A stretch of DNA of 64,000 nucleotides from NCBI RefSeq assembly GCF_030013595.1, contig NZ_CP122768.1. The stretch is one strand, 5' to 3'. A model generated the notes under the pieces. It was not told where the DNA came from. It saw nothing but the letters and a program-made list of their open reading frames with translations, and did no database searches. The position numbers and the translations under genes were made by a program. This document shows positions 9,593 to 11,172 of the stretch, one piece after another (the first letter of the stretch is position 1; each line of letters starts with the position of its first letter). This DNA comes from Escherichia coli. GTDB lineage: Bacteria > Pseudomonadota > Gammaproteobacteria > Enterobacterales > Enterobacteriaceae.

Positions 9593-9708
9593 AACGTTTT
9601 TCCGGCGTTTCTCAACGCAGGGATAGTGCGCTTTGTTTATGCCGGATGCGGCTAAAATGAACTGCACCCCAAATGTTGGACATAATCTGACATCTGAAGG
9701 TGCAGTTT

Positions 9709-10230
9709 ATGAAACATTCATTTGAAGTAAAACTTGCCGCTGTAAATCATTACCTGGCTGGTCATGCAGGCATCATTTCTACGGCAAAACTCTTTCAACT
9801 TTCTCACACCAGCCTCTCACACTGGATTAATCTTTTTCTTCTTCACGGTCCTCGTGCACTGGATTGCAGACACAAGCGTAGCTATTCTCCTGAAGATAAA
9901 CTTTGCGTGGTTCTTTATGCTCTCGGGCATTCTGAGTCTCTACCCCGGGTAGCTGCCCGGTTTAACATTCCCAGCCACAACACGGTTAAAAACTGGATAA
10001 AAGGCTACCGCAAATCTGGTAATGAGGCCTTTATCAGGCGCAGGAAGGAGAAAAGCATGACCCGTTCTGATGATACCCATGAAAACGAGGCAAACATGAC
10101 GCCGGAAGAGATGAAGAATGAGCTGCGTTATCTTCGCGCAGAAAATGCATATCTGAAAGCCATGCAGGAGCATCTCCTGGAAAAAAAGCGCCAGGAGCTG
10201 GAGAAAAAACGAAAGTCATCCGGAGCCTGA
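9709..10230 (+). CDS. insJ: IS150 OrfA (HTH DNA-binding protein)
   Basis: 173-aa ORF MKHSFEVKLAAVNHYLAGHAGIISTAKLF... ending in a leucine-zipper-like region. Confidence 0.85.
   Translation: MKHSFEVKLAAVNHYLAGHAGIISTAKLFQLSHTSLSHWINLFLLHGPRALDCRHKRSYSPEDKLCVVLYALGHSESLPRVAARFNIPSHNTVKNWIKGYRKSGNEAFIRRRKEKSMTRSDDTHENEANMTPEEMKNELRYLRAENAYLKAMQEHLLEKKRQELEKKRKSSGA
10183..10189 (+). promoter_or_regulatory. Programmed -1 ribosomal frameshift heptamer A AAA AAG
   Basis: Slippery A AAA AAG motif in the orfA frame (LEKKRQ) just before the orfA stop; the -1 frame continues into orfB. Position +/- 2 nt. Confidence 0.6.
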
Positions 10231-10334
10231 GGTGCGGACACTGCCAGTCTGACCTGTTAAAGGCTGCAGGGCTGGCCAGAAGCACGCTGTACTACCAGCT
10301 GTCACTGCAGAAGGCTAAGGACAAGTATGCTGAT

Positions 10335-11057
10335 GTGAAACAGCTCATAGCCTCCATCTTCCATGAACACCGGGGATGTTATGGGTACCGGCGGATCCAT
10401 TGTGAGCTTCAGAAAAGAGGTCTTAAGTTCAGTGGCAAAACGGTGCGAAAACTGATGCAACAGCTCGGCCTGAAGTCTCCTGTGCGCCTGAAGAAATACC
10501 GGTCTTACCGGGGAAATATGGGACTCGCTGCAGAAAATATCCTTCAGCGGCAGTTCAAAGCGGAAGCTCCCTGTGAGAAATGGGTGACAGATATCACCGA
10601 ATTCAGGGCTGGCGGACAAAAACTGTACCTGTCCCCGATACTTGATTTGTTTAACGGGGAAATCGTGGCGTGGGAAACTGCCTGCAGGCCTACAGAGGAG
10701 CTGGTGAAGCGGATGTTAAATAAGGGGCTGGAAAGCCTTGCTGAAGGGGAGAAACCGCTGCTCCACAGTGATCAAGGATGGCATTACCGGATAAAAAGTT
10801 ATCAGTCCGCCCTGGCGGACAGAGGGTTAGTGCAGAGCATGTCGCGCAAGGGCAACTGCCTTGATAATGCGGTAATGGAGAACTTCTTTGGTCACCTGAA
10901 AGAAGAAATGTACTATCGCCGGGACTACAGAAATGTAGAAGAGCTGGAAAATGCCGTTAACGAATACATAACTTACTGGAATCAAAAAAGAATAAAACTC
11001 AGTCTTGGGGGACTCAGTCCGGTAGAATACCGGACTGAGCATCAAAAAGCCGGTTAA
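10335..11057 (+). CDS. insK: IS150 OrfB (DDE transposase catalytic domain)
   Basis: ORF with IS3-family motifs (HSDQGWHY, SMSRKGNCLDNAVMENFFGHLK). The orfB frame is open further upstream with no ATG, consistent with expression as an OrfAB fusion. Confidence 0.8.
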   Translation: MKQLIASIFHEHRGCYGYRRIHCELQKRGLKFSGKTVRKLMQQLGLKSPVRLKKYRSYRGNMGLAAENILQRQFKAEAPCEKWVTDITEFRAGGQKLYLSPILDLFNGEIVAWETACRPTEELVKRMLNKGLESLAEGEKPLLHSDQGWHYRIKSYQSALADRGLVQSMSRKGNCLDNAVMENFFGHLKEEMYYRRDYRNVEELENAVNEYITYWNQKRIKLSLGGLSPVEYRTEHQKAG

Positions 11058-11089
11058 CTGAAACTGTCCAGGTTTTGGGGTTCAGTTCA

Positions 11090-11172
11090 AAACGCCTTAT
11101 CCGGCCTACAAATTCTACCAAATTCAATATATTGCAGAAATCATGTAGGCCTGATAAGCGTAGCGCATCAGG
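11090..11172. repeat. REP elements (BIME-like); the first REP is split by the IS insertion
   Basis: GCCGGATGCGGC (9640-9652) on the left flank and CGCCTTATCCGGCCTAC (11093-11109) on the right rejoin into a consensus-length REP; a second REP GTAGGCCTGATAAGCGTAGCGCATCAGGC lies at about 11143-11171. Confidence 0.6.

Follow-up and report, generated by a model that had tools for sequence, protein, structure and literature searches.

An intact IS1397 element in the loop of a repetitive extragenic palindrome between ysaA and avtA of Escherichia coli, with a predicted hairpin over the start of orfA

What kind of mobile element has entered the intergenic region between ysaA and avtA on an Escherichia coli chromosome (NCBI RefSeq NZ_CP122768.1), why does it stand precisely where it does, and what might it do there? 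The window considered here is the whole stretch of 64,000 nt of that chromosome, and the original prediction, made from the letters of the window, described the element as an IS150-type insertion sequence (IS) occupying a repetitive extragenic palindrome (REP). The answer to the first part of the question is that positions 9658-11089 are almost certainly an intact IS1397, a member of the IS3 family that groups with IS150 rather than with IS3 or IS2, integrated in the loop of a REP. As such the finding is already known, in that it is one more chromosomal IS1397, annotated as such before now in RefSeq genomes that are identical to the window, and REP insertion is the published defining behaviour of the element and not a chance find.

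The identification comes from a megablast search of 5426 complete E. coli genomes, which is the genome set meant throughout. The element is present at 100% identity over 1432 nt in NZ_CM149870.1 and NZ_CM149862.1, both of them UK pig isolates, and it was found at 99% identity or more in 1327 records, annotated throughout as 'IS3-like element IS1397 family transposase'. A copy in strain CFT073, which lies inside a REP between yaeF and nlpE and is flanked by an AAC duplication, is 98.9% identical to the window element over the full 1432 nt, and it is this copy that Tobes and Pareja (2006; PMC1525189 and its supplement) named IS1397 and displayed within a REP.

If the element were instead a copy or isoform of IS150, lying elsewhere than the K-12 copy, the two should look alike, and in some respects they do: both are about 1.43-1.44 kb long with a 173-aa OrfA and an A AAA AAG frameshift site, the terminal bases are similar (TGAACTGCACCC in the element and TGTACTGCACCC in IS150), and InsK of IS150 is the nearest K-12 relative. 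This explanation nevertheless has next to no chance of being correct and was rejected, as the element and K-12 IS150 did not align in blastn (E <= 1e-3), their proteins share only 51% (OrfB with InsK) and 27% (OrfA with InsJ) of amino acids, and the RefSeq name is that of the IS1397 family. The element thus falls short of the roughly 90% or greater nucleotide identity by which an isoform of IS150 would be recognised, and it matches a different member of the IS3 family. Its length of 1432 bp is also the reported length of IS1397. When IS150, IS3 and IS2 were compared, IS150 was the closest K-12 relative at the sequence level; OrfB is only 30% identical to InsF of IS3 and 23% identical to InsD of IS2, and OrfA has the length of InsJ, compared with 99 and 121 aa for the IS3 and IS2 counterparts. 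'IS150-type' therefore survives as a subgroup label and fails as an identity.

The K-12 IS150 site itself happens to lie inside the window, in the hokA/sokA locus beside glyS, where 39 nt at ~29980-30018 stand in place of the 1443-bp IS150 of K-12. That site is empty, hokA/sokA is uninterrupted, and no copy of IS150 occurs within the 64-kb window. The original prediction was right that the ysaA-avtA site differs from that of the K-12 IS150 copy, but to compare the two at all was a category error, the element being IS1397.

Everything that an IS3-family element needs appears to be present (Table 1). The termini are TG...CA, with TGAACTG at the start and CAGTTCA at the end, the right end being the reverse complement of TGAACTGAACCCCAAAACCTGGACA, and 21 of the 25 positions of the terminal inverted repeats are identical; an element with orfA and orfB, such ends and imperfect repeats of about 25 bp had been foreseen, and the range of 9637-11110 given for it corresponds to the IS together with both halves of the REP. 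The orfB frame is -1 relative to orfA and stays open between 10122 and its stop codon at 11057, and the A AAA AAG heptamer stands in exactly the phase relative to orfA that -1 slippage needs, in agreement with the RefSeq note 'programmed frameshift'. The motif A_AA.A_AA.G, a typical one for IS3-family elements, ranks with the most efficient frameshift motifs in E. coli (PMC4066793). The fusion product OrfAB scores 387 bits against NCBIfam NF033516 'IS3 family transposase' (cutoff 160) and contains, by Pfam, two HTH_28 domains, an HTH_21 domain and an rve core (rve 7e-21), with the catalytic residues D295, D355 and E391 all present in DD(35)E spacing, i.e. 35 residues from the second D to the E. 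The two open reading frames (ORFs) joined by a frameshift, the DDE core in OrfB, the TG...CA repeats and a target duplication of 3-4 bp are together those of the IS3 family.

Table 1. Coordinates of IS1397 and of the sequence features around it in the window.
Feature	Position	Strand	Basis
ysaA (4Fe-4S protein) coding sequence, intact	9119..9592	+	RefSeq annotation mapped, ORF list
Left half of split REP, GCCGGATGCGGCTAAAA (5' arm and loop)	9641..9657	+	sequence
Target-site duplication copy 1, AAA	9655..9657		comparison with empty allele
Predicted RNA hairpin, 54 nt	9657..9710	+	folding, covariation in relatives
IS1397, complete 1432-bp copy	9658..11089	+	identity to annotated copies and the CFT073 copy
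Left terminal inverted repeat (IRL), TGAACTGCACCCCAAATGTTGGACA	9658..9682	+	comparison with reverse complement of right end
orfA, 173 aa, two helix-turn-helix domains	9709..10230	+	ORF list, translation, Pfam HTH_28 x2
orfAB fusion transposase, 449 aa	9709..11057	+	RefSeq coding sequence, NCBIfam, Pfam
A AAA AAG -1 programmed-frameshift heptamer	10182..10188	+	codon phasing with orfA
Right terminal inverted repeat (IRR)	11065..11089	-	pairs with IRL
Target-site duplication copy 2, AAA	11090..11092		comparison with empty allele
Right half of split REP, CGCCTTATCCGGCCTAC	11093..11109	+	sequence
Linker, 35 nt, between both REPs	11110..11144		sequence
Second REP, intact, inverted, GTAGGCCTGATAAGCGTAGCGCATCAGGC	11145..11173	-	sequence
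avtA (valine-pyruvate transaminase) coding sequence, intact	11179..12432	-	RefSeq annotation mapped

That a REP was the target is established by reconstructing the empty site. The junctions read GCCGGATGCGGCTAAAA, then the IS, then AAACGCCTTATCCGGCCTAC, and deletion of the IS together with one AAA rejoins the flanks into the palindrome GCCGGATGCGGCTAAAACGCCTTATCCGGCCTAC, which agrees with the E. coli REP consensus in the supplement to PMC1525189. Neither a mismatch nor a gap separates the 600-nt reconstructed site from E. coli A10 (NZ_CP028764.1; 100.0% identity), and the spacer between ysaA and avtA, with its REP empty, is uninterrupted in 5368 of the 5426 genomes. The loop GGCTAAAACGCC of the empty allele has 4 A; in the occupied allele 4 A precede the element and 3 A follow it, and AAA is therefore a true 3-bp target duplication; both the REP target and the AAA duplication of the original prediction are borne out by this comparison. 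The split REP is the ysaA-proximal one of a pair forming a bacterial interspersed mosaic element (BIME), the other REP lying intact 5 nt from the stop codon of avtA. Where no IS intervenes, the two REPs are predicted to form a joint structure (-41.3 kcal/mol, z = -4.7), and the median number of places matched in a genome by a query containing this BIME was 20, as befits REPs, which are imperfect GC-rich palindromes of about 35 nt, much repeated outside genes and often arranged as inverted pairs with a linker. The types concerned are presumably those named Y, Z1 and BIME-1. The linker between the two REPs is similar to that of the K-12 dppA-dppB BIME.

Two other places in the window bear on REPs and BIMEs in their own right. 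At ~44400, between dppA and dppB, a 153-bp two-REP BIME of K-12 belonging to the same family as the ysaA-avtA BIME is missing, and at ~15836-15858, between xylR and bax, a REP of K-12 is missing; these are instances of presence-absence polymorphism of REPs and BIMEs.

The REP specificity seen at this one site can be set against what is known of the element generally. In the account given in PMC1525189, IS1397 is stated to have been shown experimentally to insert specifically into REPs, the palindromic units of BIMEs, and its transposase appears to be responsible for that specificity (Clement 1999, Wilde 2001 and 2003, as cited there). A sample of insertions was obtained by scanning metagenome contigs for the exact 25-nt left end of the element, which yielded 74 loci with 50 distinct 30-nt left flanks. 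Strict REP-arm patterns were present in 36 of the 50, and about four more are degenerate REPs, the window flank being among the latter, compared with a background of 0.08% of random window positions fitting the same patterns. Insertion occurred 6-9 nt beyond the conserved GAT motif and thus within the REP loop, and the duplications flanking complete copies are of 3 or 4 bp (AAC, TTGA, TGGC, TGT, CAC, ACC, GTTC and GCCA). REPs of the short-loop type, to which the intact one beside avtA belongs, were found in none of the sampled REP flanks. It can be concluded that the REP specificity of IS1397 is strong, but not absolute.

Two possible refinements of target choice were considered and not retained. 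A rule of orientation, prompted by the four events at the ysaA-avtA REP all pointing the same way, was rejected as unproven; the metagenome sample has both orientations relative to the REP (22 flanks with the 5' arm and 14 with the complement of the 3' arm), so that four out of four is unremarkable. Recognition of the loop through likeness to the IS terminus, given that TGAAC occurs in many loops, was set aside, as the loop here is CTAAAAC and lacks TGAAC.

Some individual copies deserve mention. One metagenome contig (OHQM01005509.1, ~1476; locus L077) has IS1397 in the loop of a GC-rich hairpin that is not a REP, with AAGCCCCTCCGGAG to the left of the IS and GAGAGGGGCT to its right and a GAG duplication, which hints that a stem-loop shape, beyond REP sequence alone, can be recognised. 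Two others (L047 and L048) carry full-length IS1397 with REP halves on both sides but unmatched duplications, as would be expected if recombination between IS copies had reshuffled the flanks. E. coli CV601 (L087, 1501-1565) retains 65 bp of an IS1397 right end (95% identity) as a fossil between yhhI and yhhJ, with the half REP TAAACGCCTTATCCGGCC directly after it, and this fossil abuts the ISEc1/H-repeat transposase gene yhhI; it occupies the same place in ~1780 genomes, including K-12-like ones, so that genomes without an intact IS1397 still keep a relic of an old REP insertion.

How the copy between ysaA and avtA would have arrived can be outlined from its parts and from the behaviour of its family. 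OrfA would be a DNA-binding protein with two helix-turn-helix domains, and -1 frameshifting at A AAA AAG would give the OrfAB DDE transposase. The latter would presumably excise a circular copy in a copy-out/paste-in process and the circle would then integrate by way of a staggered cut of 3-4 bp, both of these steps being proposed at the level of the IS3 family. The loop that the element entered here is that of the ysaA-proximal REP of the two-REP BIME, with its 4 A, and AAA was duplicated. The transposase gene is co-oriented with ysaA, and in read-through RNA from ysaA the left end of the element would fold onto the start of orfA. Since the inverted repeats, ORFs, frameshift site and catalytic residues are intact, and since copies 99.9-100% identical stand at many REPs in many genomes, the sequences suggest that IS1397 has been active recently.

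A number of points weigh against this picture of a recently active, REP-specific IS1397. Nine or ten of the 50 sampled sites are not recognisable REPs. The name IS1397 is taken from the annotation in RefSeq and from the copy in CFT073. No significant stimulatory structure was found 3' of A AAA AAG (z = -1.03), and a promoter scan of 9000-11700 gave no sigma-70-like site. Present-day activity of this particular copy is a prediction from its letters. To these must be added a competing explanation of the left end of the element, taken up below.

Occupancy of the same loop turns out to be recurrent. The ysaA-side REP is occupied in 22 of the 5426 genomes, with four different junctions in the same loop of 4-5 nt. 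The junction AAAA-IS-AAA of the window occurs in two genomes, the UK pig isolates already named, and AAA-IS-AAAA in 18, mostly porcine isolates resembling enterotoxigenic E. coli, the junction having been read in two of them (L004 and L007) and taken for the others from identical BLAST rows. AAAAC-IS-AAC is found in one genome (EcPF15), as is TTAA-IS-TTAA (GF131), in which the loop is the variant TTAAA. The ysaA-avtA REP has thus been struck by four independent events and is a recurrent target. Three Japanese pig isolates with the AAA-IS-AAAA junction (EC556, seen at L007, 3351-6559, and also EC571 and EC581) have an IS66-family element, ISCro1, inside IS1397.

The insertion had been proposed as the mark of a distinct lineage, and the population data separate two senses of that claim. 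Since the loop has been struck independently at least four times, occupancy alone is homoplasic and a poor lineage marker. The exact junction AAAA-IS-AAA, by contrast, is rare (2 of 5426) and marks a narrow lineage, tying the window to the two UK pig isolates. It might be asked whether the occupied allele arose in that lineage by transposition or came from another strain when the ysaA-avtA region was exchanged by homologous recombination. E. coli recombines often, the flanks are 100% identical to the unrelated wild-bird isolate A10, and the exact left flank and junction of the window are also present in two human-gut metagenome contigs (the L020 group), all of which would fit import. On the other hand, among complete genomes the junction is common to only two near-identical pig isolates, transposition is needed once in any case, and a local donor exists, in that IS1397 occupies six places in the window's genome (and up to 40 per genome elsewhere). 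Import is accordingly considered quite unlikely, and if it did occur it would leave the identity of the element and its mechanism uncontradicted.

Folded as RNA, 9641-9730 has a minimum free energy of -32.6 kcal/mol (z = -5.87), and none of 200 shuffled sequences was as stable. In the predicted hairpin 9657-9668, i.e. the first 11 nt of the IS and one flanking A, pairs with 9699-9710 (GGUGCAGUUUAU), and the 3' arm takes in part of a Shine-Dalgarno-like GAAGGUG (9696-9702) and the AU of the orfA AUG (9709-9711). A scan of contigs for relatives found only IS150-like elements with 38-57% identity and one E. coli copy, and the hairpin was compared in 17 of these IS150-like relatives (38-57% protein identity), from Bacillus, Neobacillus, Pseudomonas, Massilia, Ensifer, Halomonas and other hosts. 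In the 17 relatives the equivalent helix was paired in 90% of cells, as against ~42% when the partner was slid by 1-3 columns; compensatory changes were present in 8 of the 17 helix pairs, and covariation was 0.281 compared with 0.127 +/- 0.017 in shuffles, not one of 500 reaching the observed value. The hairpin is therefore conserved, and covaries, across IS1397 and its relatives in these genera. IS150 itself was inspected and lacks an equivalent helix.

What the hairpin does is a separate matter. On the folding model it probably masks the orfA ribosome-binding site and would so block translation of read-through RNA. As its 5' arm is the extreme end of the IS, it is expected only in transcripts initiated outside the element, here from ysaA. 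We would put forward, tentatively and with more doubt than confidence, that it is a translational insulator undescribed for the IS1397 sub-clade, one that would permit residence where read-through is likely, as in REPs at the 3' ends of operons; were this true, the transposase would be silenced on ysaA read-through RNA. Nothing relevant came up when the literature on IS3-family elements was searched for a described structure that insulates against read-through. The competing explanation is that the left-end palindrome acts as DNA, in binding OrfA or OrfAB or in recognition of the end. The 5' arm is, after all, the terminal inverted repeat, to which the transposase must bind, and the absence of the structure from IS150 indicates that it is not essential to the group; moreover, as the scan placed no resident promoter, the RNA model is incomplete. 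A function at the DNA level is nonetheless judged somewhat unlikely, because in the relatives from Bacillus, Pseudomonas and the enterobacteria alike the 3' arm always lies over the Shine-Dalgarno sequence with the start codon a few nt downstream, because G-U pairs are tolerated in the helix, and because the right end has no matching internal partner; fold-back inhibition of the kind established for IS10 and IS50 is a precedent for the RNA reading.

As had been noted at the outset, and as the mapped RefSeq annotation confirms, the element separates ysaA and avtA, which converge. Neither coding sequence is interrupted: the IS begins 65 nt from the end of the ysaA stop codon, the site is extragenic so that no gene is broken, and the split is confined to the ysaA-proximal REP. 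The insertion is thus probably near-neutral, and that four independent lineages tolerate an element here argues against a strong cost. The original prediction raised the possibility of altered termination or mRNA stability for both genes, and for ysaA such an effect is possible, though the sequence by itself lends it no support. In its stronger form this would make the insertion regulatory, with the splitting of the REP destabilising ysaA mRNA, or with read-through from the element giving antisense RNA to the 3' end of avtA. The very stable two-REP structure described above would be lost to ysaA transcripts, and there is no intrinsic terminator between orfB and avtA; indeed, a consensus scan of 9000-11700 found no intrinsic terminator for ysaA or avtA above chance, and its one terminator-like site, inside the IS, was at or below chance level. 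Set against this, the avtA-side REP and both coding sequences are intact, the hairpin and weak IS promoters usually hold IS transcription low, and the same site has been struck four times without obvious cost. We regard a regulatory effect as unlikely, and prefer to see the insertion as close to neutral.

Two further departures from K-12 were observed in the window. At 50033-50332 and 50516-50815 there is a tandem duplication of the ldrD/rdlD type I toxin-antitoxin system (93% identity, 483-nt spacing) encoding two 35-aa Ldr peptides at ~50241 and ~50724 (+), where K-12 has a single copy at the locus. In bcsE there is a deletion of 116 bp relative to K-12 (K-12 positions 3697663-3697778) at ~53023-53033, between TTCAACGCGG direct repeats, which shifts the frame, so that the ORF at 52967-54238 (-) has 423 aa compared with 523; judged by its sequence, this may possibly cause a defect in cellulose regulation in the strain.

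The practical importance of the identification lies in correct annotation, since IS typing and comparison with K-12 would both go astray under the label IS150, and IS3-like elements embedded in REPs of E. coli should be checked against IS1397. What is mildly new is the fourfold recurrence at one REP loop, together with the covarying hairpin that joins the left end to the ribosome-binding site, and the latter offers a modest lead on how such elements tolerate read-through from the host.

It remains to place the element among the systems that it resembles. The IS1397 of earlier studies (Bachellier et al. 1997, Clement et al. 1999, Wilde et al. 2001/2003, as cited in PMC1525189) is near-identical in sequence, and its known behaviour, entry into REP loops with a duplication of 3-4 bp, matches that of the window copy with no substantive difference. 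ISKpn1 of Klebsiella pneumoniae, also of the IS3 family, is reported to be a relative that likewise targets palindromic units, with the transposase setting the type of unit, but its targets are those of the Klebsiella type. IS621, ISPpu9, ISPpu10 and ISPa11 are similar in their site-specific insertion into REPs (PMC1525189), but they belong to the IS110 family and have an unrelated transposase of the DEDD type, no such inverted repeats, a fixed position of insertion, repeats of 0-2 bp and another mechanism. K-12 IS150 (insJ/insK) is alike in family, length (1443 compared with 1432 bp), 173-aa OrfA, heptamer and related termini, but differs in having no nucleotide similarity to the element and no hairpin between the left end and the ribosome-binding site, and in residing in the hokA/sokA locus and not in a REP. 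For the hairpin the closest parallel lies outside the family. Fold-back inhibition of transposase translation is established for IS10 and IS50, in which RNA from the outer end folds back on the ribosome-binding site only in transcripts started outside the element, so that the transposase is shielded from host read-through, and the predicted IS1397 hairpin has the same geometry; IS10 and IS50, however, are IS4-family elements, and the structure predicted for IS1397 is far longer (~54 nt, with a helix of 17 pairs in the relatives).

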